From assembly GCA_018062345.1 (NCBI GenBank), contig JAGOSL010000001.1, positions 170,493-234,492 on the forward strand: a stretch of DNA of 64,000 bases, read 5' to 3'. Shown here one piece after another: positions 1 through 46,011 of this stretch. Positions within the stretch are counted from its first letter, which is position 1; each line of letters begins with the position of its first letter. Source of the DNA: Pseudomonadota bacterium. GTDB lineage: Bacteria > Pseudomonadota > Alphaproteobacteria > Paracaedibacterales > CAITNM01. The notes beneath the pieces are model-generated. The model made no database searches, had not been told where the DNA came from, and worked only from the letters and a program-made list of their open reading frames with translations. Both the position numbers and the translations under genes were made by a program.

Positions 1-557
1 CAGAAAGCCAGCCGCCAACTTAGCCCGAAAGAAGTTACAATAGAAGCTAATCCAAGTGCTGCAGAGGTTCCAAGTGAAACAGAAAAAGCAAGTAAAGCAA
101 CGGCTGAATATCTAGCTGGTGGCTGGATGGTTTCGCTTAAATAAAGTTGAGCTCCTGTTATTTCTCCCATAGAAGACATGCCTTGAATAATGCGGCAGAT
201 AGTTACTATCCAGGCAGCTGTAATGCCAATTTGCGAGTAAGTCGGCAAGTTAGCCATCACTAAACATGAAAAAGACATCATGGTTGTGGTGATTACGACT
301 GTTACCTTTCTTCCTACGTTATCGCCAATATATCCGAAAGCAAGAGCGCCTATTGGCCTTAGAAGGTATGTTGAGCAAAAAGCAAAAGCCGTGAGTAAAG
401 CAGCCGTATGCGCATCAGTTTTAGGAAAAAACAGTTCGTTAAGAAGGACTGCCATATGTATATAAATCATGAGGTCGAAGTACTCTAAAAAAGTACCGAT
501 AGAAAGCAAAGCTACCGCTTCACCCTGTTCTTTTTTTAATCCAAACATACTTTTCAT
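1..557 (-). CDS. MFS transporter, metabolite:H+ symporter (ProP-like) family; N-terminal part only, gene runs off the window start
   Basis: Own minus-strand translation from ATG at 557 gives MKSMFGLKKEQGEAVALLSIGTFLEYFDLMIYIHMAV...FGYIGDNVGRK. The FLEYFD and GD..GRK motifs match the complete MFS at 20592-21845 (VEFYDFTIYGFF, GNLGDKIGRKK). It is absent from the ORF track because it is open at the window edge. Confidence 0.75.
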   Translation of the reverse strand, partial: MKSMFGLKKEQGEAVALLSIGTFLEYFDLMIYIHMAVLLNELFFPKTDAHTAALLTAFAFCSTYLLRPIGALAFGYIGDNVGRKVTVVITTTMMSFSCLVMANLPTYSQIGITAAWIVTICRIIQGMSSMGEITGAQLYLSETIQPPARYSAVALLAFSVSLGTSAALGLASIVTSFGLSWRLAF

Positions 558-844
558 CCTTTTGGTAAACAGTTTTAGGGCCGAAGACTAATTTTGTCCT
601 ATTGCCCTAAATAGGATAACAGATAAATTTTTCTTTTTTAGTAAAATTTTACAAGTAGTGTCGCCTAGGCAAACAATCATTATGCCCTCTGTTTATCATC
701 TCTTTGTTATTTTAGCAACGAGCATAGAAAACATTTTTTCACTTTTTTGTTGTATCCTGTAATTTATTTGAAAGAGCATATTTTTCTTACTGAGCAGAAA
801 AATTTTTAATCAATCTTCATAAATATGAGCTAGAATTTTATGTA

Positions 845-1405
845 GTTCAGTGGGATAGGGTTAACACCCTCGCCTTTAGGCGAACACTTTAGTATTATGA
901 CTTCATGGAATATCGTCGCGGCTCACATAGTCTATTTGACCTAAAATATCATGTGGTATTTTGCACAAAATATCGCTTTAGAGTTTTGACAGGACAAGTT
1001 TCAATAAGGACTCGGGAACTCATTAGAGAAGTTTGCGCAGCAAACTACATTGACATAATCAGCGGCAGTATGAGTCCTGATCATGTCCACCTGTTAATTT
1101 CTGTTCCACCAAGCATATCACTTTCAAAAACTGTTCAGTACATCAAGGGAAAGAGCAGCAGGAAATTGCTTCAAGAATTTGAGGTATTGCAGAAAAAATA
1201 TTGGGGGCAGCATCTTTGGGCCAGAGGATACTTTGCAGTGACGGTAGGAAATGTGAATACCGAAGATGTTCAACGTTATATAGAGCAACAGGAAGAGCAT
1301 CACAAAAAAGACGATTTTCGTATTTCAGAATTCTAGCGTTTACGCGTTGAATCTGCTTTGCAAGCGTTAAATCAAACTACCGGCTTTAGACGGTTGTTAT
1401 TGATG
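845..1405 (+). mobile_element. IS200-group (IS200/IS605 family) insertion sequence with tnpA only and no tnpB; boundaries approximate
   Basis: The Y1 transposase ORF is flanked by subterminal hairpins. On the left are AGGGT-TAAC-ACCCT (857-870) and TCGCC-TTTA-GGCGA (870-883). On the right is ACCG-GCTTTAGA-CGGT (1379-1394). Left and right hairpins share a CGsCTTTAGrCG core. Confidence 0.7.
905..1336 (+). CDS. tnpA: IS200/IS605 family Y1 (HUH) transposase TnpA
   Basis: 143 aa. It has YHVVFCTKYR, the HUH motif in SPDHVHLLISVPP, YIKGKSSRKL, and a C-terminal Tyr helix VQRYIEQQEEH. The size is typical for this family. Confidence 0.92.
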   Translation: MEYRRGSHSLFDLKYHVVFCTKYRFRVLTGQVSIRTRELIREVCAANYIDIISGSMSPDHVHLLISVPPSISLSKTVQYIKGKSSRKLLQEFEVLQKKYWGQHLWARGYFAVTVGNVNTEDVQRYIEQQEEHHKKDDFRISEF

Positions 1406-3136: not shown

Positions 3137-4440
3137 AGTTGTTACGATTCTTTGTTTTTTCCAGCATTATTAATTTTCCCATTTTTGCCGAATTAAAATC
3201 AGGTAGCGTTATTGTTGACGCGCGTGCAGAAAAGCTGGTGAACAATATTCTTTCTCGCTTGTGTAAATCTAGCAAATTACTTTTTGTTCCTAAAATCTAT
3301 TTTGTTGTTGATAAAAGTATTAACGCTTTTGCTACCGATGAATCCAAGATTTTTATTCACACTGGTCTTATTATCAAATTTAACAATGTGAATCAGCTCA
3401 TTGCTGTGCTTGCGCATGAGTTGGGGCACATTACCGGTGGGCATATGCATCGCATGAGTAATGAAATGAAGGGCGCTAATGTTGCTTCAGTTATTGGTAC
3501 ACTTCTCGGAGGTGTTGCAGCCCTTGCAGGAGGTGGATTTGAGGCGCTTATGGCAGGTAGTATGTTGGGGCAAAGTGCTGCGATGGGAACTTTTGCTAGT
3601 TTTTCAAGGACTCATGAAAAAGAAGCTGATGCAGCAGGGTTTCGCATGCTGCAAGAGGCAAATCTTGGTACTGAGGGTTTTATTGAAACCTTTGAATTGT
3701 TTAAAAAAATGAATGCATTTGGTGAAATTCCCTATTTACAGACCCATCCAAGCGATCAGGATCGTATTGATGCCTTTAAGCATTATCGCGATGCGCATCC
3801 TGATAGAGGTTCAACGCCAATGGAATGGGAGCAAGAATTTCAAATCATTAAAGCAATTTTTATGGCAAACTTGAACAAGCCCTCAGAAACTGAGCGCTAT
3901 TACTATCAAAAAAATACGCCAGCTGCTCACATTGCGCGCGCAATTATCTATTCTAGGAAAGGGTTGTACAGGCAAGCATTTAAAAAGTTGGATGAACTTT
4001 TGAGTGAATCACCTGATAATCCTTACTTACACGAAATGTATGGTCAATTTTTGTTAGAATCAGGGAATGCGCGTGCTGCTGTAGAGCATTTGCGAAAAGC
4101 GGTGAATTTATCTAGAGATGCTTTGTCTATTCGTTTACTTTATGCACAAGCACTGTATACCGATTCTAGCGATAACGCTCAAGAAGCTCTTGATCAACTG
4201 AATCGAATTACTCAGGATGATCCAGATAATATCATGGCTTGGCTGCTTAAAGTAGGAGCTTATCGCAAGCTTGGACAGCAGGGTTTTGCAGATATCGCAC
4301 AAGCAGAAGCTGCAATGCGTATGGGGGATGTGCAACTTGCAATCAGCCGTGCAATGCGTGCGAAAAAAAGCGACAATCCTAAAATAAAAGAGCAGGCAAA
4401 AATGCTTTTGGAAGACTCTCGTCTAAGAAGTGAAGAATAA
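3133..4440 (+). CDS. M48 family metalloprotease with C-terminal TPR region (BepA/YfgC-like)
   Basis: There is an N-terminal signal peptide, the HEXXH motif in AHELGHITGGH, a downstream EKEAD, and a TPR-like helical C-terminal half. Length is 435 aa. Confidence 0.8.
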   Translation: MKLLRFFVFSSIINFPIFAELKSGSVIVDARAEKLVNNILSRLCKSSKLLFVPKIYFVVDKSINAFATDESKIFIHTGLIIKFNNVNQLIAVLAHELGHITGGHMHRMSNEMKGANVASVIGTLLGGVAALAGGGFEALMAGSMLGQSAAMGTFASFSRTHEKEADAAGFRMLQEANLGTEGFIETFELFKKMNAFGEIPYLQTHPSDQDRIDAFKHYRDAHPDRGSTPMEWEQEFQIIKAIFMANLNKPSETERYYYQKNTPAAHIARAIIYSRKGLYRQAFKKLDELLSESPDNPYLHEMYGQFLLESGNARAAVEHLRKAVNLSRDALSIRLLYAQALYTDSSDNAQEALDQLNRITQDDPDNIMAWLLKVGAYRKLGQQGFADIAQAEAAMRMGDVQLAISRAMRAKKSDNPKIKEQAKMLLEDSRLRSEE

Positions 4441-11020: not shown

Positions 11021-11452
11021 TTATGGCAAAGTCCAATTTTCAAGTGGAAGATTTTGGATATAAGAAAAATGCTTTGTATTGTTCGTAACTAAGGTTAAAG
11101 ATTGGCTTAAAGCATGAGCTGCAATTAAGGTATCCATAACCCCTATATCTTTTCCTTGCAGCAAAAGCTCAGTTCTGACTTTTCCATAAAGCCATGCCGC
11201 CTCTTCGTCAAACTCTAGAACGACAAAAGCGGTAAGCATATGTTCAATGGCATTGATGAGTTTTTCTTGTTTTGGTGTGTTTTTGTTTTTAAGGTTTTCC
11301 AAGCCTCTAGAGACTTCTGCTACAGAAATTACTGAGATCGCAATACTTCCTTCGGGTTCTTTTAGCAGACGTTGAAAAATATTTTTATGAAAAGTGTCAG
11401 TCTTTTTTACTAAATAGCTTAGAGTATCAGTATCCAGCAGGTAGCGAATCAA
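11021..11452 (-). CDS. vapC: type II toxin VapC (PIN-domain ribonuclease)
   Basis: MIRYLLDTDTLSY (first acidic residue), EVSRG, MDTLIAAHA and LVTNNTKHF. It has a 4-nt overlap with the upstream antitoxin. Confidence 0.85.
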   Translation of the reverse strand: MIRYLLDTDTLSYLVKKTDTFHKNIFQRLLKEPEGSIAISVISVAEVSRGLENLKNKNTPKQEKLINAIEHMLTAFVVLEFDEEAAWLYGKVRTELLLQGKDIGVMDTLIAAHALSQSLTLVTNNTKHFSYIQNLPLENWTLP

Positions 11453-11691
11453 AATAGGTTTGCCTTATCTGTATAATCTGGTGCATCGCGGAGAATTTCT
11501 AAATCGTCTGGCAATGCTGCTAAACTTTCTAACAAAGGTTTCCATGAAAGATTAACAGGCTCTAAAATGACTTTATTGCCGCATTTATGGATATAAACAC
11601 TTGAAGTATCTTTAAAACTAAACTTCTTTGGTAAGCGCACAGCTTGGCTTCCTCCGGTGATAAATAATTTTGCTGACTCAAAATTAAGCAT
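11449..11691 (-). CDS. vapB: type II antitoxin VapB (AbrB/SpoVT fold)
   Basis: 80 aa. AKLFITGGSQAVRLPKKF is the swapped-hairpin motif, and the gene is coupled to vapC. Confidence 0.8.
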   Translation of the reverse strand: MLNFESAKLFITGGSQAVRLPKKFSFKDTSSVYIHKCGNKVILEPVNLSWKPLLESLAALPDDLEILRDAPDYTDKANLF

Positions 11692-11801
11692 ACTGACCTC
11701 AAGAATATATGTACTTTATGTATATACAAAAAGTACTAATTTGTCAAGAATTAATATGAGCAAAAGACATTACCCATAAGTAACAACGGATATTAATCAC
11801 T

Positions 11802-11842
11802 GGATTCCATGCCTCCTTCGGAAGGTTCTGAATGACGAGTTG
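11802..11842 (+). repeat. GC-rich hairpin repeat, copy A
   Basis: GGATTCCATGCCTCCTTCGGAAGGTTCTGAATGACGAGTTG. The hairpin closes on a C(UUCG)G tetraloop. It lies about 150 nt upstream of the amidinotransferase. Confidence 0.5.
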
Positions 11843-11997
11843 GCTGGTTAGATTATCCATAAAATTTCTATAATATTGTCATGGATGCTATTTAAACACA
11901 TTAAATTTGAAATTTAAAAATTGGTTTTGGGGTTTTGTTTGCCATATTGATCGAATTTAGATAAGTTGACCTATCATTTTTGATAGGTAGCTGAATA

Positions 11998-13191
11998 ATG
12001 CGTCATGGCGAGTTAGCTCAGGATTTAATTTCTAATGTTGCACCAGCACGCGCCATTAATAGTTATGATGAGTGGTCTTCTTTAAAAGAGGTTATAGTTG
12101 GTTCACCCTTAAGCTATGAAGCGAATGAGTTGGATTTATCGTTTAAGGTTTTTTATGCAGATACTGCGTATTCATCTTTTGGCTATCCTACCTATAAAAA
12201 AAAGAGCGATAATTCAGCTTGTTTGGAGCAAGCAAAAAAACGAGCAATTAACAAAAGGTATTTAGAAGAACTAAATGAAGATGTTGAAGGCTTTGTTGAT
12301 GCTTTAGAAAAAGAAGGAGTTAAAGTTTTTAGGCCTATTGCCTTGAAAGAAGCGACAGAATTTAAAACACCCTATTGGAATGCGACAGGTATTCCGGCGT
12401 TGAACGTGCGTGATCAGGCAATTATATTCGGTGATGAGCTGGTTGAAACAAGCCCGCAAGTTAGGGCGCGTTATTTTGAAAGTGATCTTTTAAAGCCAAT
12501 TTTCTACCGCTATTTTAACTTAGGTTCTAAATGGACGTGTATGCCAAAACCAGTAATGACAGATCATTCTTTCGATTTATCATATGCTAAAGATATAAAA
12601 AGAGAGATGGTTGCTACAGAAGTTCTTTTTCAGCAATCTCGTTCTGATTTTGATGTGGGGTTTGAGATATTATTTGACGGTGCGCAGTGTATTCGTTTTG
12701 GTAAAGACGTGCTCGTTAATGTGACGACTCAGAATCATGAGTTGGGTTTTGAGTGGTTGCAGCAGCATTTGGGATCAAAATTTAGGCTTCATAAAGTTTT
12801 TAAATTAACTGATAATCATATCGACAGCATGATTTTACCTTTGCGTCCAGGTACGCTTTTGTTACGCAGTGCCAAATATTTAAAATTTTTGCCTGATTTT
12901 TTGAGAAAATGGGATATTATTTACCCACCAGAACCCCAATTAAATATTTTTCCAAATTATGAAAGCGATGATTTGGTGTTAACCAGTAAGTATATTGATT
13001 TAAACGTATTGTCACTTGATGAAAATAAAGTGGTAGTGAATTCTTTATTTCCTGAACTTATTGCCACCTTAGAAAAAAATGGATTTACCGTGATTCCGGT
13101 TCGGCATCGACACCGGCGAATTTTTGGAGGAGGATTTCACTGTTTTACCCTAGATACGGTAAGAGAAAGTTCCTTAGAAGATTATAGATAA
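11998..13191 (+). CDS. amidinotransferase (glycine/inosamine amidinotransferase, GATM/StrB1-like)
   Basis: 397 aa. HIDSMILPLRPGTLLL is present. The C-terminal catalytic-Cys region FGGGFHCFTLDTVRESSLEDYR closely resembles the GGGFHCWTCD end of AGAT-type enzymes as I recall them. Confidence 0.75.
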   Translation: MRHGELAQDLISNVAPARAINSYDEWSSLKEVIVGSPLSYEANELDLSFKVFYADTAYSSFGYPTYKKKSDNSACLEQAKKRAINKRYLEELNEDVEGFVDALEKEGVKVFRPIALKEATEFKTPYWNATGIPALNVRDQAIIFGDELVETSPQVRARYFESDLLKPIFYRYFNLGSKWTCMPKPVMTDHSFDLSYAKDIKREMVATEVLFQQSRSDFDVGFEILFDGAQCIRFGKDVLVNVTTQNHELGFEWLQQHLGSKFRLHKVFKLTDNHIDSMILPLRPGTLLLRSAKYLKFLPDFLRKWDIIYPPEPQLNIFPNYESDDLVLTSKYIDLNVLSLDENKVVVNSLFPELIATLEKNGFTVIPVRHRHRRIFGGGFHCFTLDTVRESSLEDYR

Positions 13192-13287
13192 ACTAATTCA
13201 GAATTCATCATATTGAAAAGAGTAAGCATCGTCTGGTTGTAGGCCTGAAACTTAGAAAGTATCCCATTACTATTGATCTTACCCACC

Positions 13288-13337
13288 AGATCATGCCCTC
13301 GTTGGGGGCTAAGGATGAAGCGTTTTAAAGCAGTTTG
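13288..13337 (+). repeat. GC-rich hairpin repeat, copy B
   Basis: AGATCATGCCCTCGTTGGGGGCTAAGGATGAAGCG...CAGTTTG. The hairpin is GCCCTC-GTT-GGGGGC. It lies between the amidinotransferase and the HK. Confidence 0.5.
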
Positions 13338-13394
13338 ACTTATTAAAAAATAGGAATATCTTATACGTTAATGTGAATAAAAAGGCAAAATAAA

Positions 13395-14657
13395 ATGCTT
13401 GAAAAGATTTTATCTTTTTCTGCAAAACGTGTTGAGCTGTTTGGTGCTCAATATAAAGCTTATGGAACCTTGGGTCTTATTAATTTTCCAGTGGCATACT
13501 TTATTTTGCATAACGCTATGCACCAGGATGAGAGTATAGGGCTGCGTTTATGCGCTGCTGTTTTATGTGTGCCTTTGGCTTTTCATACATACCTGCCTGA
13601 AAAATTTAAACCCTACCTTCCTTTGTATTGGCATGGAGTTCTAACGTATAGTTTTCCATTTTTTTGTACTTATATGCTTTTGAAAAATAATGTCTCTTTA
13701 GGATGGCTTACCAATGCGTCGCTAGCACTATTTATTTTTATACTGTTGGTTGATTGGTTAATGTTTGCCATTATTGTTTTTTTTGGAGCAGGGTTAGGGA
13801 TTGCGGCATATGCCATTTTCCATGGCTTTGCGAATTTTTATGTGCAGGCAAGTACAGATGATATTTCGCTAGCATGTAATCAATATTCTTTCATCATTAT
13901 TGTGGGGATTTTTTTCTCACGACATAAAGAGATTGTGAAACTTAAAGAAAGGCTTTGCTCAATGGAAAGTCTTGCGGCAACTATCGCTCATGAGCTGCGC
14001 ACGCCGCTGGCAAGTATTGCCATGGTAGGTGAATTGCTGAAAAAGCAGCTGCCTGTTCTTGAATCAGGGGCAAAGGGGGAAGAGCTGCAAAAGGCGTTAA
14101 AATTAATAGCATCAGTGCCTGAACGAATAAGCACAACAACACGCAACGCGTTTACGGTTATTGATATGGTGCTGATGAACCTGAAGAAAAAGCCCGTGTC
14201 TCATGAGCATAAAAATTGCTTGATGAGCGAGTGTATTGAATCAGCATTGTATGAGTATCCTTTGGAGGAAAAGCAAAAGGAATTAATTCATTGGGACAAA
14301 AGTGTAGATTTTTCCTTCAAGGGGAATGAGCTGTATTTGAAGCATGTGTTGTTTAATTTATTGAAAAATGCCCTGTATTACATGCGTGCGGCGAATAAGG
14401 GGGAATTGTTTATTTGGCTGGAGAAGGGCGATAAATACAATTCGTTGTATTTTAAGGATACCAGCACCGGCATTGCACCAGAGGTTTTACCACATATCTT
14501 TGAAAGCTTTTATTCAAAGACCGCGAGAGGTACAGGTGTGGGGTTGGCATTTTGCAAATCGACGATGCGCGAATTTGGGGGAGATATTGTGTGTGAGTCT
14601 ATGGAGGGTGAGTTCACGACTTTTGTGCTGACGTTTCCGGTGGTGGAAGAGGATTGA
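13395..14657 (+). CDS. membrane sensor histidine kinase with about six closely packed TM helices (CqsS/LqsS-like architecture) and no receiver domain
   Basis: H-box ATIAHELRTPLASI, N-box FNLLKNALYY, G1 FKDTSTGIAPE and G2 GTGVGLAFCKS. The N-terminal 175 aa are almost entirely hydrophobic with minimal loops. Confidence 0.85.
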   Translation: MLEKILSFSAKRVELFGAQYKAYGTLGLINFPVAYFILHNAMHQDESIGLRLCAAVLCVPLAFHTYLPEKFKPYLPLYWHGVLTYSFPFFCTYMLLKNNVSLGWLTNASLALFIFILLVDWLMFAIIVFFGAGLGIAAYAIFHGFANFYVQASTDDISLACNQYSFIIIVGIFFSRHKEIVKLKERLCSMESLAATIAHELRTPLASIAMVGELLKKQLPVLESGAKGEELQKALKLIASVPERISTTTRNAFTVIDMVLMNLKKKPVSHEHKNCLMSECIESALYEYPLEEKQKELIHWDKSVDFSFKGNELYLKHVLFNLLKNALYYMRAANKGELFIWLEKGDKYNSLYFKDTSTGIAPEVLPHIFESFYSKTARGTGVGLAFCKSTMREFGGDIVCESMEGEFTTFVLTFPVVEED

Positions 14658-14669
14658 TGGTATAGGGTT

Positions 14670-14717
14670 GGATCTTCACGCCTTCTTTGAAGGCTCAGGA
14701 TGACGGTGAGAGAGTTG
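14670..14717 (+). repeat. GC-rich hairpin repeat, copy C
   Basis: GGATCTTCACGCCTTCTTTGAAGGCTCAGGATGACGGTGAGAGAGTTG. The hairpin is GCCTTC-TTT-GAAGGC. It starts 13 nt after the HK stop. Confidence 0.5.
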
Positions 14718-14759: not shown

Positions 14760-15737
14760 TCAAGCCGCTCTACTAAAGGCCTCAAATGATAAAATTTGTT
14801 TATTGTCTAGATCAAACCCTCCAGGGCCATACGCATAATAATAAAGCTGATTTCCTTGAAGTTGCTGCGCTGGTCTAACATATTGATACCAATTCGAAGG
14901 GTCAGGAATTTCTATTGTTGCATGATTGTGAAAACATAACATTTTCTTGTGTGCTTGCATCTCATCGAACAGGGGATCAAAGAGTTCATGTGAACTGGTA
15001 ATTGCGTCTAAGTGATCTTGTAAAAAAGTGAAAAGACTACTGGCCTCGCCTTTTTTATTTAAAAGCAAGAACGTTCCTGTGGTTTCATGAAGATAATATT
15101 CGACGATGTTATTTTCTTCAACAAGTTTGAAAAAAAGCTCAATAAATGCTGGGTCTTCTAAAGCGGTGGTTGATTTGTCAAAGGTTGCAGCAGTTGTAAT
15201 AAGGCTTGAGGTTTGTTGAAAGTAGGTGAGTTGAGCTTCGACGATAGCTTTTTTTAATTTCTTAATAGATTCAAATTCATGTTTTTTTATGTATGCTTGG
15301 ATAAGCCCCTGATTAAAAGCATCGATGGCAATGTGTTCATCTTCATCACCTGTCAAAAGAATGCGTTGAATCCATGGATTGTTAATTTTTGAGCAGAGTT
15401 CTATTCCTGTGATGCCAGGCATATGGTAGTCAACAATAATCGTTGAAAGCTGTTTGAAGCGATTGGGGTTATAAACTTCCTTGTACAAATCGTAGATATT
15501 AAAATCAAGGCGCACATGCTGCCATGCATCGGGGTTTGTTTGTTCAACAAGTTGATGAGAGAAAAGTGTGTTTTCTTGATGCGCGTTGATGGTCTCTAGG
15601 GCTTGAAAAGGGTTTTGACAAGGTATGTATGTTGATGTGTCTTCATCAAGGCAGGGGATAAGATTTTCAACTATGCTTTGATCATCGTCGATGATCATTA
15701 CTTGGCTGGGAAGAAAAGTACAAGGGATTTTTTTCAT
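14760..15737 (-). CDS. atypical response regulator: receiver domain with a large insertion plus an uncharacterised C-terminal domain of about 190 aa
   Basis: Acidic pocket MIIDDDQ, phospho-acceptor IIVDYHMPGITG, LLTGDED and YIKKH. About 50 extra residues lie between the acidic pocket and the acceptor Asp. No recognisable DNA-binding output is seen. Start moved to MKKIP. Confidence 0.75.
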   Translation of the reverse strand: MKKIPCTFLPSQVMIIDDDQSIVENLIPCLDEDTSTYIPCQNPFQALETINAHQENTLFSHQLVEQTNPDAWQHVRLDFNIYDLYKEVYNPNRFKQLSTIIVDYHMPGITGIELCSKINNPWIQRILLTGDEDEHIAIDAFNQGLIQAYIKKHEFESIKKLKKAIVEAQLTYFQQTSSLITTAATFDKSTTALEDPAFIELFFKLVEENNIVEYYLHETTGTFLLLNKKGEASSLFTFLQDHLDAITSSHELFDPLFDEMQAHKKMLCFHNHATIEIPDPSNWYQYVRPAQQLQGNQLYYYAYGPGGFDLDNKQILSFEAFSRAA

Positions 15738-16052
15738 AAGATTCAGTCCTTCTTGCAATGAAAGAAGCCAAATTATTCAAGACAGTCTATATAACATAAA
15801 AAAAATAACAACCTATAACTTTTTATAGGTAGCCATACATTTTTAATAAATTTTTCCGGTTCTGCTTTTGTTAGAAAAACTCAGGCAATGTCACGTGTTT
15901 TTCGCGTTAACGATCTAGTAATGCATTTTCACTATCTTTAATTCAATGCGCAGCAACATAGGTTACTGCGGGTAATTAACAAATTCTTTACACGATCTGT
16001 GGATGCAAAAAGGGTTTGTTTTTTGTGTTTAATCATTTTGATGGAGAAATTT

Positions 16053-37831: not shown

Positions 37832-38024
37832 TGGGGTATTCCTTTTGCAAATCCTGCCGTGAGGGTAAAAAAATTTTTCCTTAGTTACTACGTGGAATTT
37901 TATTGAAAATTCACTTTGCTATCTGATTTTATTCTGTTGTATACGCTCGCGATGTCCAATATCCCTTTAAGTATTGAATTTTGGGATTTTTGTTGCAATT
38001 TTGATGCATCAATAAAAGTCTTAA

Positions 38025-38327
38025 TTAGCTTGGGGTGTCTTCTAAAGGGGTGTCAGGAAGCTTGCTTTTTAAAACCCCTGTATTATGAGATAAGTTTATT
38101 TCTAAAGACCTTGCTCTTTCTTCTCCAGTAGTTAGCCTGCTTTCCACTTCTTTAGAAAAAGTTTTAAAGGAATTTTGTAAGTTTGTAATATCATTCTCTA
38201 TGACATCAAGTTTTCTTCTTTCCTCTTTCCTATTTTTCCATTTTTCTATGATGAGCGGAGGTAGTAATCCTGCAAAAAAACCAAGAAGGGCGGGTATTAA
38301 AAATTTCCAATCTAAAGACATCATCAT
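38025..38327 (-). CDS. hypothetical single-pass membrane protein with a coiled-coil tail; start ambiguous (38381 or the MMM cluster near 38327)
   Basis: TM segment FLIPALLGFFAGLLPPLII followed by a charged helix. It sits downstream of rimM on the same strand. Confidence 0.4.
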   Translation of the reverse strand: MMMSLDWKFLIPALLGFFAGLLPPLIIEKWKNRKEERRKLDVIENDITNLQNSFKTFSKEVESRLTTGEERARSLEINLSHNTGVLKSKLPDTPLEDTPS

Positions 38328-38432
38328 CCCCTTTATTTTGATTAAAGCAATTACTAATAAGCCTAAGCTTAGATAGCACAATAAGGTCTTAGATACAAAT
38401 CTTGGTGTGAATTTACAATTTAATATAACTGC

Positions 38433-38921
38433 TTAAATCAGGAAATGATCTTCTTCACACTCAAGTTTGTCGGAAAGAATGGTGCAACTGGTTAAATGTA
38501 TGTTTCCTGTTTTTCCTGATTGCGTTTGAACTTCACAAAAGGTTCCAGCGCCGAAGTCAAAAACTCCTATTACGTGACCTAATATTTTATTATTTGCTAT
38601 CAGCGGTAGCCCTATTAATTGTTCGTAATAGATTTCATCATCAGAAGGAGGAGGGAGCTGATGGTCAAAAATGAAAATTTTACTACCCTTTAAAAGTTCA
38701 GCCTGATTCCGGGTTGTTACTCCATCAATTGAAGCAATAGCAATGGTTGGGGCTTTGATAGTTAAACTTGTAATTGATATAGGCTCCTGCTTTTCATTAA
38801 CAAGAGACCCGTACATAGTTAGGCTATCGGACGAGCTTGCAAAGATTTTAATTTTCACTTGGCCTTTAATGCCATGGGCTGCTGTGATTTGTCCAAGGCA
38901 AATCAAATGGTTCATTGGCAA
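38433..38921 (-). CDS. rimM: 16S rRNA processing protein RimM
   Basis: ICLGQITAAHGIKGQVKIKIF is the RimM N-terminal motif, followed by a PRC barrel. Length is 162 aa. Confidence 0.85.
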   Translation of the reverse strand: MPMNHLICLGQITAAHGIKGQVKIKIFASSSDSLTMYGSLVNEKQEPISITSLTIKAPTIAIASIDGVTTRNQAELLKGSKIFIFDHQLPPPSDDEIYYEQLIGLPLIANNKILGHVIGVFDFGAGTFCEVQTQSGKTGNIHLTSCTILSDKLECEEDHFLI

Positions 38922-39081
38922 CTCACATTATCTTAAAAATGAATTTAGAAGGTTGGGGCAAAGATTTTTCTTCCTGATCTTTGAAAATAGGGTGAATATC
39001 CAGTGAGTAAGGTTACTATTAGTTCACTGGATTGCCACACTCAGTATATAGTCTCGCAAGTAATTCTTGCATAGGCTATAT

Positions 39082-39543
39082 TTATTCGGCTGCTGGTGCT
39101 TCTGTAGCAGCTTCTTCTGTAGTTACCGGAGCGTCTTCTACTGGTGCAGTAGTTTCAGCGGCTGGTACTTCAACAACAGTTTCTTCCGCTGCTTGTGCCG
39201 CAGCAGCAGCGGCTTCTTCAGCTGCTTTTAAACGATCTTGTGCTTTTTTCTTAGGCAGTGATTTCTTAGGAGTCACACTGTTGGCTGGTTTTTTCAACAG
39301 GTCGATATTCGCTAAAAAGCCAATAACGCGATCAGTTGGTTGTGCGCCAACAGAAAGCCAATATTTTGCGCGATCAGCGTCGATTATAACACGCTCTTTA
39401 TTCCCGTGCTCTAAAAACGGATTGTATGAACCAATACGTTCAACAAAACGACCATCTCTTGGTGCAGTCGCTTCAGCTACCACAATACGGTAGAAAGGAC
39501 GCTTCTTCGCGCCACCACGCGCTAAGCGAATTTTTAATGCCAT
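39082..39543 (-). CDS. rpsP: 30S ribosomal protein S16 with a long Ala/Glu/Thr-rich C-terminal extension
   Basis: [42 protein letters not shown]. Length is 153 aa against about 85 aa for the core. Confidence 0.92.
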
Positions 39544-39566
39544 GTGTATTACTCCTTAAACACTCT

Positions 39567-40919
39567 TTATATTCCACGCATCATTGCGCCTAAACCTTGG
39601 CGCATGAAACCCTTTTTCCCTATCTTTCCCATTCGTTTGAACATTGTTTGCATTTGTTCAAACTGCTTGAGCAAGCGGTTAACTTCCATTACTTGCACCC
39701 CAGCACCTAATGCAATACGCTTGCGGCGTGATCCATTTAGGATATTGGGAGTTCGTCGCTCTTTTTTTGTCATTGATCTAATAACAGCAAGTTGACGGCG
39801 AACAAGGCTGTCATCAAGGCCAGCCCCTTCCAGTTTATCTTGTATTTTGCCAATTCCGGGCAAAAAACCAAGCATACTAGAAAGCCCGCCCATTTTTTGC
39901 ATGCCTTCTAATTGTTTGGCCATATCATTCAGATCAAAATGCCCTTTTTCTAATTTTTTTGCAAGCTTTTCTTGATCTTCACTTTCAGCAAGTGCAGAAG
40001 CTCTTTCTACTAAGGCAATAATATCGCCCATATCAAGGATACGGCTGGCAACGCGATGGGGGTCAAATATCTCTAATTGGTCAATACGCTCGCCCATTCC
40101 AAGAAATTTAATCGGGCATCCAGTTACGTGACGCATAGAAAGAGCGGCGCCCCCGCGGCCGTCACCATCTGCTCGTGTGAGGATAATTGATGTTAGGCCT
40201 ATAGCATCATGGAAGCTTTTTGCTATATTTACAGCATCTTGTCCAGTGAGACTGTCAGCTACTAAGAATGTTTCTATAGGCTTTGATAGAGATTTTATTT
40301 CTTTTAATTCTGCCATCAATTCATCGTCGATGTGTAAACGTCCGGCAGTATCTAAAATAATAACATCTGTATTTTGGGTTTTTGCTGCGGTCATTGCACG
40401 CTTTGTTATCGCAAGTGGCTTCTCGCTATCAACAATAGGCAAACTTGGAATGTTCATTTGCTTAGCCAGCGTTTCCAATTGTAATTGAGCGGCAGGGCGG
40501 TATACGTCTAATGAGGCTAATAAAACATTTTTTCCAAACTTAGTGGTAAGTAATTTTGCGAGTTTTGCTGAAGTGGTAGTTTTTCCTGATCCTTGCAAAC
40601 CAGTCATTAAAATGACCATAGGTGAAGGGGCAGCAAGATTGATGGGTTCAGGCTCACCACCTAAAGCATGAATCAATTGTTCATTTACAATTTTTACAAC
40701 CATTTGGGCAGGATTAATGCTTTTGACAAGCTCTTGCCCAATAGCCTTTTCTTTTGCTTGTTCGATAAATTCTTTGACAACGGGTAAGGCTACGTCTGCC
40801 TCAAGAAGGGCAATGCGAATTTCACGCATCGCTGTGTTGACGTCATCTTCTGAAAGGGCGCCACGACCTTTTAAGCGATCAAAGATTCCGGATAAGCGAT
40901 CAGATAGTGATTTGTACAT
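39567..40919 (-). CDS. ffh: signal recognition particle protein Ffh
   Basis: GLQGSGKTTT, DTAGRL, TRADGDGRGGAALS and a Met-rich M domain. Confidence 0.95.
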   Translation of the reverse strand: MYKSLSDRLSGIFDRLKGRGALSEDDVNTAMREIRIALLEADVALPVVKEFIEQAKEKAIGQELVKSINPAQMVVKIVNEQLIHALGGEPEPINLAAPSPMVILMTGLQGSGKTTTSAKLAKLLTTKFGKNVLLASLDVYRPAAQLQLETLAKQMNIPSLPIVDSEKPLAITKRAMTAAKTQNTDVIILDTAGRLHIDDELMAELKEIKSLSKPIETFLVADSLTGQDAVNIAKSFHDAIGLTSIILTRADGDGRGGAALSMRHVTGCPIKFLGMGERIDQLEIFDPHRVASRILDMGDIIALVERASALAESEDQEKLAKKLEKGHFDLNDMAKQLEGMQKMGGLSSMLGFLPGIGKIQDKLEGAGLDDSLVRRQLAVIRSMTKKERRTPNILNGSRRKRIALGAGVQVMEVNRLLKQFEQMQTMFKRMGKIGKKGFMRQGLGAMMRGI

Positions 40920-40998
40920 ATGCCCTCGTAAAATGTATTTTTAAAATAGGGAATATCAGGGGAAATTACAAGAATGAGTATACCCAATATTTTTGCTG

Positions 40999-42192
40999 CT
41001 AATCGTATTCCGTATTTACTAAATTATCCCAGTCAGGAAAATCATCATTGAAATTATTCTTGGCAAGTTGTTCAGATGAAATAGATGCTAATGTCTGAGG
41101 AAGAAGAAATGGGAGATCATCAGCTGTTATTTCATCATCGCTATCTTCTTCGCTTGAGGTCCAAGATTTTTGCTTTGATCTTTTTAGCAGTGAACTTCTT
41201 TTAAGAGTATTTGGAGTAATCATCTTTCCATTGTCATCGAATTCTAAGCTATTTCTTCTGCCTCGAAAGCTTTTAAGTGTCTTATTTTTAAGCAACTCTA
41301 TTCTATCTGGAAATTGAACGCTGCGTGAGTTGGTTTTTAAAGCCTTTTCAGGCCCCAACCTGCAAGATGTTTCAATGCTGAGTTCTCCGCCGGCCCTAAT
41401 TCCATCATAGATTATTTGTGGTGCTATATATGCACGAAACTTAGCAGTAAGAGCAACCATAGATGAAAACATAAAAATAGTGTATTTGGGTTTTTTTGAT
41501 AGGTTTGGTATGTGTTGTGTGCAACCTTTTATCCAGATTGCTAAATTAGGGTAATGTGATTTGAATTCTTTTTTAAAATTTAGTAGTGGGTTTAAGTTAG
41601 CTGTATATCCAATAATATGGCGAAGAGCTAAGTTAAGCTCTACATCTTCATTTGTGCCATCTAGATCATCCCATATTTTTGAAAAGACTCGAGCGAAAGT
41701 TTCTAACTTCCATAAGTTTCCTGTATTTCTGCAAGGGTCTGGAGTGTTGATGATCTTTAAAAAAATGAATAATGTATTGCGTGTGATATCTTGTTCATAC
41801 AAGGGGTTGAAATATATTTGGGAAGTTACTTGCCGTTTCAAAGTGTATGCTTTAAGAATTTTCTCGGAAAGTATTTTTATTTCGTCAAGAACAGGTCTTT
41901 GAGAAAAAATCTCATTAATAATTTGACCAAAAAGAGGCGTTTGTTCAAAATTTATAGCTGGGACTCGAGGAGCATGACTAAGTAGGTGTTGAAAAATAGC
42001 TGGATTAATAGCTATTTTTTCAGTCCAAAAATTGGGAATAAAAGTGCTAGGAACTAAGTAAAGACCCGCAACAAAGGGCTGCATAGCATAATTTTGATCT
42101 TGCTCAAATTCTTTGTCATCTTTTGCTTCAGCACTGTATAATGCGAAAACTATTACGATAGCTAAAAAACTTAGAATAAAATGTCGAAACAT
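40999..42192 (-). CDS. secreted hypothetical protein, family A paralog 1 (397 aa)
   Basis: Signal peptide MFRHFILSFLAIVIVFALYSAEA. It aligns by eye to ORF 56617-57525 (for example FIFLKIINTPDP vs TSFLSIINTPSV, HYPNLAIW vs PYPDLAEW, and APQII vs ASQII). Confidence 0.6.
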   Translation of the reverse strand: MFRHFILSFLAIVIVFALYSAEAKDDKEFEQDQNYAMQPFVAGLYLVPSTFIPNFWTEKIAINPAIFQHLLSHAPRVPAINFEQTPLFGQIINEIFSQRPVLDEIKILSEKILKAYTLKRQVTSQIYFNPLYEQDITRNTLFIFLKIINTPDPCRNTGNLWKLETFARVFSKIWDDLDGTNEDVELNLALRHIIGYTANLNPLLNFKKEFKSHYPNLAIWIKGCTQHIPNLSKKPKYTIFMFSSMVALTAKFRAYIAPQIIYDGIRAGGELSIETSCRLGPEKALKTNSRSVQFPDRIELLKNKTLKSFRGRRNSLEFDDNGKMITPNTLKRSSLLKRSKQKSWTSSEEDSDDEITADDLPFLLPQTLASISSEQLAKNNFNDDFPDWDNLVNTEYD

Positions 42193-42341
42193 CTGCTGAG
42201 TGTGAATGCTTTTCTTATTAAAGTATAAAGTCCAAATTTTCAGATACTCAAGAAATATATTCTAGGTGGACGGTGCCACCTTGGCGTATTACCTGAAACA
42301 ATTTTTTTATTTCTAAGATTGCTGCTCAAAAATTCTGTTTG

Positions 42342-42356
42342 TGGCATGATTTTTGT
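42342..42356 (+). promoter_or_regulatory. possible sigma54 (-24/-12) promoter upstream of fliD
   Basis: TGGCAT-GATTT-TTGT against the consensus TGGCAC-N5-TTGC, about 40 nt upstream of the fliD ATG. There are two mismatches, so support is weak. Confidence 0.3.
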
Positions 42357-42395
42357 ATATAAGAACATACTATATAGTAAACAAAAGGTAGTTAC

Positions 42396-44243
42396 ATGCC
42401 TGGCGAAGTTAGCATGGGTAGAGCCATTGTGGATCCAAAAGGTCAAAAGCCTGTACGTGTTGGTATGAATCACGGTGGTCTTGATATGCAAGCAACCGGT
42501 AAAGAAATAAAAGAAGCTACTCTTGCCTCTACAAAAAAGCAAAGCGATGCTATTGAGAAAAATAAAACAGGGGTTCTTCCAGCTATCAGCGCTTTGCAAG
42601 AAAAAGTTAAATTATTACAAAGTGATGCTATTGCACTTAGTAACTACCTTGGAGATCGGCCTGGAATTGAAAGCAGTTTTAAAAGTCTTGTTCCTACAGT
42701 TTCTAAATCTGGAGAATTCTCAACAACTTCATTTGTGGACGTTACTCTAGATAGTGCCGTTGCTAAACCAACATCTGGATCAGTTTCCATGCGTGTTCTT
42801 CAGCTAGCAGTTGAGGACTCACGTATAACGGTAGATACAATCAAAGATTCAAGTAATAATCCCATTACATCAATTAACCAAGAGTTAGGCATATCAGGTA
42901 GTTTCACAATTAATGGTGGCGCCACAATTAATGTAAGAACAACTGATACATTGTACTCAATTGTTTCAGCAATTAACAATTCAAACTCAGGTGTGCAGGC
43001 AAATTTTTCCCAAAATGGTTTCGAACACTATTTAACATTAACAGGAACAAAACTTGCAAAGTCTCTCTTTTTTTCAGATAACGACGGCCTGCTGCAAACT
43101 CATTTTGGTATCGACACGGGGCCTACAGATATAGGAAACTTACAGGCAAAAATAGAATGTGATGTAACCGATGGCAAAAGAGGTGTCGTCACAAAAACCT
43201 ATGAATTTGACTCTAATATCGTTAAAGACCTAATTCCGGGTGCAACCCTAAAGCTTTTGAATACCACAAAAAATAGTGGTGGTGGTTATGACAACCTCAA
43301 TATTAATATTAGCAATAATAGCAAAGAAGCATGCGACAAAATTCTCGCATTCTACCAACACTATAATGAGATACGAGAAACTCTTAACAGAAATCTAATG
43401 ACAGATGACGATGGAAATCCCTTGGATCCAGAAGCTGTTATGGTAAGGTCGCCCTTGATTAAAAAACTTAATGAAGATTTGAGAGCGATTTCTCATTTTA
43501 CATTAGTAGGCTCGGAAAGAGATGATTTTGTAACAGTTAGAGATATAGGAATCGTGCGCGATGAAACAGCTACAGGGTTTCAAGCGGGTATATTTACAAT
43601 AGCTGATGCACAAAAACTTTTAGCAGCAATCCAAAATAATTTTGAGAAAGTCAAAAAGTTATTTGGAAATTACACTACAGTCTCAAATAGTAACTTTCGC
43701 GTAACGGATCTTGGTCCTTCTCTTGACCCTATGCTTGCGGGACGACCAATAACTGTTACGCTTAGCAATGTTGGCGGTAAATATTATTCCAGATTTTTAT
43801 GCGGCAATAACGATACAGGAAATGTAGAGCAAAAATCCTCATCCCGTCTGGTGGGAAAGGAAAATAGTGTTTTTGATAAAATTACGATCGACTATAAGGG
43901 GGCTCCTGTTCAAGATGGAGATAGTGTTACCTTTACTTTGACAGCAACCCAAGGGCTTGGCGTCTCAGTTAGCAATACACTAGGAAGCCTTTTAACAAAA
44001 GAAACTATTGATAAAAAAACCGGTAGAGTAGTAGAGGCAGATGGCGATTTTTCCATTGAGGTAAAACGCATACAACAAAAAAATGAAAAATTAGAAAAGC
44101 AAGTTAAAAGGATTGAAAAAAATGCTGAACGTGAAGAAAAAAGGTGGATAGCTCAGGCTGCACGCTATGATGCAATGAAAGCCAGCTATTCTAGCCTTTC
44201 AAAGCAACTAGAAAGTATGTCGATGGCTCACAGAAGAGATTAG
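42396..44243 (+). CDS. fliD: flagellar filament cap protein FliD (hook-associated protein 2)
   Basis: 615 aa. It has an N-terminal heptad region (ISALQEKVKLLQSDAIALSNYL) and a C-terminal coiled coil (RWIAQAARYDAMKASYSSLSKQLESM). It is followed by fliS. Confidence 0.7.
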   Translation: MPGEVSMGRAIVDPKGQKPVRVGMNHGGLDMQATGKEIKEATLASTKKQSDAIEKNKTGVLPAISALQEKVKLLQSDAIALSNYLGDRPGIESSFKSLVPTVSKSGEFSTTSFVDVTLDSAVAKPTSGSVSMRVLQLAVEDSRITVDTIKDSSNNPITSINQELGISGSFTINGGATINVRTTDTLYSIVSAINNSNSGVQANFSQNGFEHYLTLTGTKLAKSLFFSDNDGLLQTHFGIDTGPTDIGNLQAKIECDVTDGKRGVVTKTYEFDSNIVKDLIPGATLKLLNTTKNSGGGYDNLNINISNNSKEACDKILAFYQHYNEIRETLNRNLMTDDDGNPLDPEAVMVRSPLIKKLNEDLRAISHFTLVGSERDDFVTVRDIGIVRDETATGFQAGIFTIADAQKLLAAIQNNFEKVKKLFGNYTTVSNSNFRVTDLGPSLDPMLAGRPITVTLSNVGGKYYSRFLCGNNDTGNVEQKSSSRLVGKENSVFDKITIDYKGAPVQDGDSVTFTLTATQGLGVSVSNTLGSLLTKETIDKKTGRVVEADGDFSIEVKRIQQKNEKLEKQVKRIEKNAEREEKRWIAQAARYDAMKASYSSLSKQLESMSMAHRRD

Positions 44244-44252
44244 GACTTAATT

Positions 44253-44648
44253 ATGTATAATCGCTATAAACAAACATCCGTCCAAGGGTTAACAGTTAAT
44301 CGGCAGATTGCAACTGTCATAAAAGATATTCATATGAAGTTGCAAGAAAGCGAACGCTTATTTAGAAGTTATAAATTAGCTGCCAGTATAGAAAGCGGTG
44401 AAAAAGCTGTTTATAAATCAATTGCTCTTTCAAATATTATGGAAGGGTATATAGATCAAACGATAAAAAAGAATCAAGGAAATTCAGAAGTTTTAGAGGG
44501 TCTGAAAGAGCTGCAACTGCATTTTAATAGTTTGCATCACACGATTAACCAATATGTTATCAAGCGTAATAAAGAGTTATATGAAAAAATAATTCTTAAT
44601 TTAAAAGCAATGGAAAATTTTTGGAATGAATTGCCTGCTGTAGAATAG
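44253..44648 (+). CDS. fliS: flagellar export chaperone FliS
   Basis: 131-aa helical protein immediately downstream of fliD. YKQTSVQG start and a C-terminal ...MENFWNEL. Confidence 0.55.
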   Translation: MYNRYKQTSVQGLTVNRQIATVIKDIHMKLQESERLFRSYKLAASIESGEKAVYKSIALSNIMEGYIDQTIKKNQGNSEVLEGLKELQLHFNSLHHTINQYVIKRNKELYEKIILNLKAMENFWNELPAVE

Positions 44649-44655
44649 AAAGCTT

Positions 44656-46011
44656 TTACCTATCAATTCTTATTCCAAAAGCTTTTAATTCTTTAAGAAT
44701 TGTTTGTAAATCTTGTTCAGTATTGCCTTCTGCTCTTACGATTAATGCACTTTGGGTGTTAGATGCGCGTACTAACCACCAGCCGTAAGTATTCTCAACG
44801 CGAACACCATCAATTTCATTAAAGCTTTTCCCTGCATCAGTTAGTTTTTTCTTTAAATCATGAATGATTTGAAGTTTCTCTCTTTCATTACAGTTAAGGC
44901 GTATTTCAGGAGTGCTGTAAGCTTTTGGAAGCTGGGCTACTAAATCAGAGAAATTTACTTCAAGTTTTTGAATATAATTCAGCAGGAAAATCGCAGCATA
45001 CAATCCATCGTCAAAACCGTAATAATCATGTTTAAAAAACATGTGCCCGCTCATTTCACCAGCAAATATAGCATTATGTTGAATCATCGCCTGTTTTATC
45101 CAAGAATGTCCTGTCCGCTCCATCACTGGTTTTCCACCAGCCGCTGTAATAGCATTGAATGTATGATTGCTGCACTTGACATCGGCAATAATTGTACCGC
45201 CTTTCGCATCTTGCAAAATCGCATGGCTTATAATCGCGACTAGCTCATCACCCGCAATAATACGCCCCGTGGAGTCTACAATTCCCACGCGGTCTGCATC
45301 ACCATCAAAAGCAAAGCCAATATCGCAATTATTTTCTTTTACAGCTGCAATAAGGTGACTTAAATTTTCAGGTACACTTGGGTCGGGGTGGTGATTGGGG
45401 AAATTGCAATCAATATTCGTAAATAATGGCACATGACTATGTTTAGAAAGGTCTTTGCAAAATGCTTCTATAACGGGTCCCGCAGCGCCATTTCCGGCAT
45501 CCCAGGCAATTCTTAGCGGCTTTTTAAAAGTGTGCCCTAACAACACTCGTTTAACGTATTTATCAAAAACATCTTTGTGTTCTGTATAATTTCCACCAGG
45601 TTTTTTTGTCACCTCTTGCAGAAGTAGATTTTGAATTTGTGTTCCAAAAAATGGTTTGTTCCTTAAGGTGATTTTAATGCCGTTATCATCCTTGGGATTA
45701 TGTGATCCTGTAATCATTAACGTTGCATCGGCATTCAGCTCAAAACCAGCGAAATAGCTCATAGGGGTTGGGCCCACGCCAATATCTAGTACCTCAAGGC
45801 CACAATCTATTAAAGCGTTACATAAAACTGCATGAAGTGCTGGCGAACTACTGCGCCCATCGCGGCAAACTACAACTGTTTTTCCACCATTGTCGCGCAA
45901 TAAGCTACCGAAGTGTTCACCTAACCACGTGGCATCAGCCTCAAAAAGGTTCTTGCCATAGGTGCCGCGTATATCATATTCACGCAAAATAATGGGGTTA
46001 GGCTGATACAT
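44656..46011 (-). CDS. phosphomannomutase/phosphoglucomutase
   Basis: Phosphoserine loop ITGSHNPKDDNG, metal loop FDGDADR and GEMSGH. Length is 451 aa. Confidence 0.9.
   Translation of the reverse strand: MYQPNPIILREYDIRGTYGKNLFEADATWLGEHFGSLLRDNGGKTVVVCRDGRSSSPALHAVLCNALIDCGLEVLDIGVGPTPMSYFAGFELNADATLMITGSHNPKDDNGIKITLRNKPFFGTQIQNLLLQEVTKKPGGNYTEHKDVFDKYVKRVLLGHTFKKPLRIAWDAGNGAAGPVIEAFCKDLSKHSHVPLFTNIDCNFPNHHPDPSVPENLSHLIAAVKENNCDIGFAFDGDADRVGIVDSTGRIIAGDELVAIISHAILQDAKGGTIIADVKCSNHTFNAITAAGGKPVMERTGHSWIKQAMIQHNAIFAGEMSGHMFFKHDYYGFDDGLYAAIFLLNYIQKLEVNFSDLVAQLPKAYSTPEIRLNCNEREKLQIIHDLKKKLTDAGKSFNEIDGVRVENTYGWWLVRASNTQSALIVRAEGNTEQDLQTILKELKAFGIRIDR

Follow-up and report, generated by a model that had tools for sequence, protein, structure and literature searches.

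Three hairpin repeats around an alphaproteobacterial amidinotransferase–kinase gene pair are probable copies of a dispersed, two-tier palindromic DNA element

Analysis of a 64,000-nucleotide stretch of DNA from a Pseudomonadota bacterium (Alphaproteobacteria, Paracaedibacterales, CAITNM01; GenBank assembly GCA_018062345.1, contig JAGOSL010000001.1, positions 170,493–234,492; hereafter the window) indicated that three hairpin repeats around a glycine amidinotransferase gene and a histidine kinase gene are, as far as sequence comparison can tell, most probably copies of a dispersed palindromic DNA repeat of the CGTC-tagged REP/Ssn-related class, and not a regulator specific to this locus. The locus-specific reading is disfavored because, across many phyla, the same repeat adjoins housekeeping genes unrelated to these two, pointing either way and usually paired in inverted doublets, and because relatives that share the gene module have it, lack it or have it duplicated, depending on the spacer. 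A preliminary description of the locus had proposed a cis-regulatory RNA, a set of protein-binding sites, or cassette or recombination scars; none of these emerged as the main answer, and a dispersed repeat class appears to take their place. The three copies that it reported (A, B and C) are real, lie on the plus strand and fall close to where it had put them (Table 1), one per spacer. Copy A separates the amidinotransferase gene from the divergent PIN/antitoxin pair, copy B lies between the same-direction amidinotransferase and kinase genes, and copy C between the convergent kinase and response-regulator-like genes, starting 11 nt past the kinase stop codon. Their plus-strand sequences are CTGGATTCCATGCCTCCTTCGGAAGGTTCTGAATGACG (A), CCAGATCATGCCCTCGTTGGGGGCTAAGGATGAAG (B) and TGGATCTTCACGCCTTCTTTGAAGGCTCAGGATGACG (C). 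The two genes should thus probably not be annotated with a dedicated RNA regulator, and the riboswitch-like appearance of the locus would be that of a dispersed repeat.

The element is a two-tier hairpin about 37 nt long. Its minus-strand sequence is CGTC-AT-NNN-GA-(variable 6-bp hairpin)-GTG-NNN-AT-CCAG, and the full-length copies on the plus strand read CTRG-AT-NNN-CAC-(6-bp stem, 3–5 nt loop)-TC-NNN'-AT-GACG. The minus strand consists of an unpaired CGTC tag, a 5-bp outer stem opening with AT, a conserved internal loop with GA opposite GTG (3 nt opposite 2 nt), a freely varying 6-bp inner hairpin with a loop of 3–5 nt, and an unpaired CCA(G) tail. The minus-strand tag is CGTCAT in copies A and C and a mutated CTTCAT in copy B; AT...AT is present in all three, with the tails CCAG (A), CCAA (C) and CTGG (B). 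Copy C is intact. Copy A has slight damage to its internal loop and inner stem, and copy B is decayed, having lost 3 nt from the 5' arm and carrying CTTC in place of the CGTC tag. The scan patterns had the tag built in, and the model alignment has CGTC as its consensus too. The first stem pair is A-U in 109 of 112 distinct family rows and the second is U-A in all 112. Covarying stems together with fixed unpaired bases would be expected of a single strand that a protein reads in its folded form. Comparison with the family also redrew the motif as first delimited: the variable stretch and AGTT(T)G that had been included are conserved in no other copy and lie outside the element. The hairpin of copy A, reported with a C(UUCG)G tetraloop, reads GCCTCC-TTCG-GAAGGT, as one G had been counted twice. 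The view of the copies as GC-rich islands fits A and B (51–58% GC in spacers of 27–29%) and fails for copy C, where the rest of the spacer is itself 51% GC.

Within the window the statistics are weak. Pairwise E-values between the copies are only 0.25–0.9, yet the best non-self match of every copy is another copy, with copies B and C as mutual best non-self matches by nhmmer (E 0.25–0.35), and a hidden Markov model (HMM) of the three copies found nothing else in the window. Therefore, sequences from elsewhere were needed to settle the question. We built two covariance models, R1 from five full-length copies in relatives, with copy A and the copy L004a outside its training, and R2 from 115 copies of unrelated genomes only. 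R1 recovered copy A (27.2 bits, E=4e-5) as well as L004a (31 bits), and R2 recovered copy C (39 bits, E=3e-10) and copy A (19.3 bits, E=9e-4). With a sequence-only family HMM, none of 100 dinucleotide shuffles of the window reached the score of copy C. Copies A and C are therefore, beyond reasonable doubt, members of the family as judged by these models, which were trained on other genomes and recover both. Copy B was not recovered by the independent models (R1 8.4 bits, E=6.6; R2 none), and is best read as a decayed family copy, because it is the mutual best match of copy C, takes the family fold, and has repeats as counterparts in the orthologous spacer of the related contig L004. A loose structural descriptor applied with shuffles was dropped as too unspecific, with 0.7 matches per shuffled window and only copy C caught.

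Analysis of covariation revealed that the hairpin is kept by compensatory change, as had been proposed from the three copies, at the level of the family. Among five copies, 9 of 11 pairs changed on both sides, and 96% of positions were paired versus 35–49% with slid partners; among 115 copies, the corresponding values were 95% versus 23–45%. The extension to relatives and other genomes by covariance models thus yielded both further copies, in the hundreds, and covariation, and the concern that chance had to be excluded has been answered for copies A and C by the foreign-genome models and the shuffles.

The family is broad. Scanning of species-representative genomes, with the unpaired bases alone as the pattern, returned at least 120 loci, mostly from Alphaproteobacteria. 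The alphaproteobacterial hosts among the matches listed comprise Rickettsia, Wolbachia, Midichloriaceae, Holosporales, Rhodomicrobium, Acetobacteraceae and Sphingomonadaceae, and the other hosts listed include Bdellovibrionota, Riflebacteria, Elusimicrobium and Nitrospinota, among more. The outer stem is perfect in 106 of the 132 pattern matches listed, and in 61 the inner 6-bp stem is perfect as well (chance about 5% and 0.3%). R1 located at least 229 copies in 104 of the listed loci, and a metagenome scan for the outer-stem type of copy C added 169 further copies. Among the R1 copies in the matches listed, doublets mostly have their tags outside (head-to-head, HH, 64), with fewer having tags inside (TT, 13) or standing in tandem (HT, 16), and the median spacer is 22 bp. 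The gene context, again among the matches listed, is same-direction in 69 cases, convergent in 57 and divergent in 14, and singletons have no preferred orientation with respect to transcription (8 same, 14 opposite). The neighbors are ordinary housekeeping genes, for example, those for ETF, YajC, GST and PstS-like proteins. In the window, the family is represented by three singletons, in divergent, same-direction and convergent spacers, and by a relic HH doublet between the S16 and RimM genes. The minus half of this doublet scores 14.8 bits with R1 (E=0.11), and the plus half, which starts with CTGGATTGCCAC, scores 9.9 bits with the family HMM, a score reached by 1 of 100 shuffles. The repeats had been held to occur at one locus of the window only, which is true of the intact copies; the doublet shows that the family extends beyond the amidinotransferase locus and is decaying in the genome of the window.

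Several other arrangements of the repeat were observed. Tandem arrays with a regular period occur in L112 (1914–2856, about 212 bp), L064 (5743–6317, about 105 bp) and L047 (3108–3728, about 146 bp). Two sub-types were noted across the metagenome loci L125–L243 (e.g., L185 and L197) and the Rickettsia loci L012, L078 and L089. In one, the exact sequence GGATCCTCACGGCGCTTGGATCGCGCCTCAGGATGACG occurs 69 times, typically as inverted pairs 190–270 bp apart, which resemble a composite miniature element. The other has a non-hairpin inner segment, such as ...CACGCTCACTTCGTTCGCTCAGG... or ...CACGCTCCTTACAGTCGCTCGC....

Comparison with known repeat systems placed the element closest to two published classes. 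The first comprises the CGTC-tagged REPs, families CGTC-1 to CGTC-4 (Di Nocera, De Gregorio and Rocco, BMC Genomics 2013;14:522, PMC3733652). They are defined by an unpaired CGTC tag (variants TGTC or CCTC), a stem beginning with AT and a CCA tail. They form doublets mostly with the tags outside and 20–100 bp spacers, lie between same-direction or convergent open reading frames (ORFs), mostly downstream of ORFs, occur mostly in Alphaproteobacteria and have no dedicated transposase. The two-tier element shares the tag, the AT-first stem, the CCA tail, the predominance in Alphaproteobacteria and the lack of a flanked transposase gene, as well as the HH-dominated doublets and the preference for same-direction and convergent locations. 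CGTC-1 to CGTC-4 have uninterrupted stems of 8–9 bp with loops of 4–5 nt; the stem of the two-tier element is interrupted, and the element is therefore no member of these four families. The peptides in the supplement of the same paper allowed CGTC-1 (CGTCATTCCCGC...) and CGTC-3 (CGTCATCGCCGGGCTTGACCCGGCGATCCA) to be reconstructed, and its lists of intragenic copies contain none of the peptides that a two-tier repeat would encode.

The second class comprises the NTS/SRM hairpins of the Ssn single-strand DNA nucleases (GIY-YIG, cd10448; Nat Commun 2025;16:2388, PMC11893778). The Neisseria NTS is CGTCATTCCCGCGMAVGCGGGAATCYRG (CGTCATTCCCGCG...GGGAATCYRG), and the reconstructed CGTC-1 repeat with its flanks is this same NTS. 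SsnA is a single-domain GIY-YIG protein of 94 aa, which binds and cuts the NTS only as single-stranded DNA and does not bind RNA; cleavage is governed by the three bases before the palindrome and binding by the C right after it (PMC11893778). According to the same work, ssn genes across bacteria have such hairpins alongside, NTS cluster non-randomly around particular genes, the presence of SsnA lowers the integration frequency of transforming DNA that carries NTS, with a flanked gene transforming less, and engineered loop extensions were used for programmable cutting. The two-tier element resembles the NTS/SRM in the unpaired CGTC before the palindrome, the AT first stem pairs, the C-Y-R-G after the palindrome and the covarying hairpin stem. 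It also resembles them in its hundreds of dispersed intergenic copies, its clusters around particular genes, its direct flanking of single-domain GIY-YIG genes of about 95 aa, and its host range (Rickettsia, Wolbachia, Sphingomonadales and other Alphaproteobacteria). The published determinants are retained in copies A and C, which have GTC before AT and C after AT, and both are near-invariant in the family consensus; copy B retains the post-palindrome C but has TTC, and its cleavage determinant is lost. In contrast to the single 8–9 bp stem of the NTS, the two-tier element has a 5-bp outer stem, a GA/GTG loop and a free 6-bp apical hairpin. Set against the published descriptions, as available, the two-tier form is thus a structural variant outside the four CGTC families and the SRM pattern; it is very common in Alphaproteobacteria, reaches other phyla and is missed by both definitions.

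Other repeat systems and sources were also compared. The element resembles the GTAG REPs of the REPIN-RAYT system in being a short extragenic palindrome with an unpaired tetranucleotide at its foot, in its inverted doublets, in being read as a folded single strand and in possible effects on mRNA, and differs from them in its tag, which is CGTC and not GTAG, and in its candidate partner, a GIY-YIG protein and not a Y1 HUH enzyme. A RAYT or IS200 protein was rejected as the partner enzyme, as the Y1 gene of the window is that of a plain IS200 transposase (RAYT model 37.6 bits versus a cut-off of 80) with unrelated flanks. Integron attC sites (RYYYAAC/GTTRRRY) were rejected as well, since the conserved ends are CGTC and CCAG, AGTT(T)G is unconserved, and the scans of the window listed no integrase. 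Literature searches by sequence string returned only primer coincidences.

Association with GIY-YIG genes connects the repeat to a candidate enzyme. A first screen of neighboring ORFs of at least 100 aa returned only generic families (SDR, ABC, kinases), with the repeat-flanked genes being housekeeping genes, and its length cut-off missed a 95-aa GIY-YIG gene. Re-screening of all fetched loci for small ORFs revealed PF01541 GIY-YIG genes of 95–119 aa in 11 repeat-bearing loci, about nine of them independent; ten of the genes are intact or cut, and that in L026 is a split pseudogene. The repeats lie 0–250 bp from these genes, mostly on both sides. In L170, for example, a repeat at 554–594(+) is followed by the GIY-YIG gene at 608–907(-) and a further repeat at 913–953(-), with the outer-stem type ATCCT/AGGAT, the type of copy C and of L003a from a related contig. 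Flanking on both sides is also found in L083, L217, L222, L230 and L152. When homologues were fetched by protein alone, both of the two examined had two-tier repeats on both sides. In L253, the repeat directly after the GIY-YIG gene (3289–3329) has the ends CTGGATTCC and TCTGAATGACG, identical to those of copy A (ATTCC...TGAAT). On the basis of their Pfam GIY-YIG domain, their size of 95–119 aa and the names of their homologues, the flanked proteins appear to be Ssn-like. Their flanking by the repeat may extend the candidate natural substrate range of single-strand DNA nucleases, and the two-tier variant offers a test case for how such nucleases read a hairpin whose stem contains an internal loop and whose apical part is arbitrary, a shape that resembles the engineered loop extensions. 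Two further observations concern such genes: L233 contains an eight-copy block (420–794) adjoining a GIY-YIG gene, and the 95-aa GIY-YIG protein P0174 (L253–L259) is found with identical sequence in 197 blocks of the collection, its gene always lying between dnaJ and a Peptidase_S24 gene and flanked by two-tier repeats, with the first base of the downstream repeat directly after the stop codon.

Comparison with relatives revealed that the copies vary in their position around the gene module. The amidinotransferase–kinase–regulator module recurs in the contigs L003 and L004 (protein identity 67–84%), and the first two genes alone in L002 (amidinotransferase 79%; cut kinase ORF 57%); the GC content of these contigs is similar, at 35–38%. 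In L003, a copy at 1795–1835 is identical to copy C at 39 of 41 positions and is located upstream of the amidinotransferase gene, at a distance of about 850 bp; this repeat thus occupies a different position from copy C, in a genome with an amidinotransferase that is only 76% identical. The amidinotransferase–kinase and kinase–regulator spacers of L003 (10 and 49 bp) hold no repeat. In L004, one inverted pair lies between the amidinotransferase and kinase genes and a second between the kinase and regulator genes, and 12642–12742 is an HH doublet. L002 holds no copies in the contig of its amidinotransferase–kinase pair. More distant amidinotransferase loci (L244–L248) share neither the kinase module nor the repeat. 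The neighborhood of the module differs between the window and L003/L004. Across the window, L003 and L004, eight full copies and a partial one are found in about 13 kb of module, versus none in about 81 kb of flanks; a test of this clustering free of selection bias (three insertion sites, L003/L004) gave only about p=0.02.

By analogy with the published Ssn work, an Ssn-type nuclease would bind the folded strand reading CGTC...CCAG and cut near the tag, and the cleavable strand in the window would be the minus strand for copies A, B and C. The family is probably spread or maintained through such an interaction, and the copies at the amidinotransferase–kinase–regulator module are probably passengers that accumulated in its spacers. 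Several results weigh against this explanation. The window holds only three copies and a relic doublet 24 kb away, so a high copy number is not evident, and neither the window nor the related loci L002–L004 contain a GIY-YIG ORF; of the 120 closest homologues, none was on a contig of 259,380 bp, which is the length of the one bearing the genes of the window. The published SRM search sequence, HGTCWYN(0-2)YYVSBRHN(0-5)WNVSBRGN(0-2)RNCYNB (PMC11893778), matches a canonical NTS but none of the 229 family copies and none of A, B and C, and the two-tier stem departs from the uninterrupted stem of the CGTC families. The clustering of copies at one module in three genomes is unexplained by a purely random passenger model. 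In addition, the folds of single copies are modest (RNA z-scores from +0.7 to -1.0; DNA fold energies of -2.2 kcal/mol for copy A and -3.5 kcal/mol for copy B), and with such unremarkable values thermodynamics alone cannot validate the hairpins.

Among the alternatives, the one that survives best keeps the same family and adds a useful post-transcriptional role at this locus, with RNA hairpins at 3' ends blocking 3' exonucleases or setting relative expression; copy C, after the stop codon, could also damp translation of the kinase. We consider such a role unlikely, though it would be compatible with the dispersed-repeat explanation. It is consistent with the location of B and C downstream of genes in same-direction and convergent spacers, with the minimum-energy RNA folds of B and C, which are the family fold, with reports that REPs stabilize mRNA, terminate transcription and affect translation (PMC6006769), and with the mostly downstream location of the CGTC REPs (PMC3733652). 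Against it, the scan for promoters and terminators found no T-tract or terminator-like site overlapping A, B or C, and no promoter overlapping them either; the hairpins have little stability (-7.5 to -10.6 kcal/mol), and shuffled sequences fold at least as well; family singletons lack an orientation bias; L003 and L002 have no repeats in the same spacers; and SsnA does not bind RNA (PMC11893778).

A further reading, which we regard as improbable, holds that the two-tier hairpin defines a distinct Ssn/SRM specificity class, in which the 5-bp foot and the fixed loop are read and any apical hairpin is accepted, and that, in this low-GC alphaproteobacterial lineage, the copies have been selectively kept as a fence of the module. 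If this were so, a fence of single-strand DNA would limit the recombinational replacement of the module or, alternatively, promote its transfer. Quite improbable in our estimate is the proposal that the copies mark or control movement of the module, either as a fence of the NTS-gene-NTS kind that lowers recombinational replacement or as boundary sites of acquisition. The confinement of all intact copies of the window, L003 and L004 to the module or its side, the different module neighborhoods, the position of copies A and L003a at the upstream edge, and the clustering of NTS around genes with reduced transformation when they flank (PMC11893778) all point in this direction. They are countered by the fact that the window was chosen for its cluster, leaving the unbiased replicate as given above, by the gene pair of L002 without copies, by copies inside the module and not at its edges alone, and by the lack of an adjacent integrase or recombinase, of a target duplication and of attC-like core sites. 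Moreover, no Ssn gene is known in the genome of the window, and none lies in its 64 kb.

A role of the hairpins as a cis-regulatory RNA private to this locus, or as sites bound by the neighboring response regulator or LysR protein, would agree with the nearby regulatory genes and with the orientation of all copies along the two genes. It is very improbable given the same element beside unrelated housekeeping genes in many phyla, its two orientations and inverted doublets, its variable presence among orthologous spacers, and a search of Rfam that returned only tRNAs at the gathering score and nothing credible at E<=10. Chance similarity made conspicuous by GC-rich stretches in AT-rich spacers, as the weak pairwise E-values and the unrecovered copy B could suggest, is practically negligible as an account of the three, being refuted for copies A and C by the foreign-genome models, the shuffles and the hundreds of covarying copies, and for copy B alone it is possible at a low level.

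Table 1. Repeat copies and neighboring genes in the window (positions of the 64,000-nt stretch)
Feature	Position	Strand	Description
Copy A	11800-11837	+	CTGG-ATTCC-ATG-CCTCC-TTCG-GAAGG-TTC-TGAAT-GACG; minus strand with CGTC tag and CCAG tail
Copy B	13286-13320	+	CCAG-ATC-(3 nt deleted)-AT-GCCCTC-GTT-GGGGGC-TAAG-GAT-GAAG
Copy C	14669-14705	+	TGG-ATCTT-CAC-GCCTTC-TTT-GAAGGC-TC-AGGAT-GACG
Decayed head-to-head doublet	38964-39063	38964-39003(-) / 39027-39063(+)	23-nt spacer, tags outward
PIN/antitoxin pair	11021-11691	-	Divergent from the amidinotransferase gene
Glycine amidinotransferase gene	11998-13191	+	397 aa; between copies A and B; naming from homologues
Histidine kinase gene	13395-14657	+	420 aa, HisKA and HATPase_c; between copies B and C
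Response-regulator-like gene	14760-15758	-	332 aa; convergent with the kinase gene; third module member, kept in L003 and L004

Several minor features of the window were recorded. At 11999–12020 on the minus strand, CGTCATGGCGAG forms a half-site of the element (tag and outer arm), which overlaps the annotated amidinotransferase start ATGCGTCATGGCGAG (M-R-H-G-E); its family HMM score of 7.2 bits was matched by 11 of 100 shuffles, and it may be due to chance. The N-terminus of the amidinotransferase at this half-site is not conserved in L003 or L004. The amidinotransferase protein had no Pfam or NCBIfam match at E<=1e-3, and more than 1800 homologues were found, many at about 65% identity in cyanobacteria and actinomycetes. 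Its gene is linked to a histidine kinase gene in four related contigs, three of which have an atypical response regulator linked to it as well.

The Y1 gene mentioned above (905–1336, plus strand) encodes an IS200/IS605 transposase of 143 aa (Pfam Y1_Tnp, E=4e-44; NCBIfam IS200 NF033573, 155 bits). Inspection of its flanks (about 840–900 and 1337–1400) revealed the upstream hairpins AGGGTTAACACCCT and TCGCCTTTAGGCGA, which are unrelated to the repeat. Two NCBI accessions under one organism name carry the identical protein sequence, which suggests at least two copies. Judged by gene content, and in spite of the low GC, the host is probably an alphaproteobacterium and not a Legionella-like gammaproteobacterium: it encodes MipZ, which is typical of the former class, and the label Alphaproteobacteria is attached to an SRP54 of the same 90%-identity cluster. 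The GC skew of the window is above zero between position 1 and about 38 kb and below zero beyond about 44 kb, with a cumulative peak at about 42–44 kb; this switch (about 38000–46000) may correspond to a replication terminus or to an inversion boundary. The window has a GC content of 38%, and its genes include those for MipZ, COX3, class II ribonucleotide reductase and FliP.

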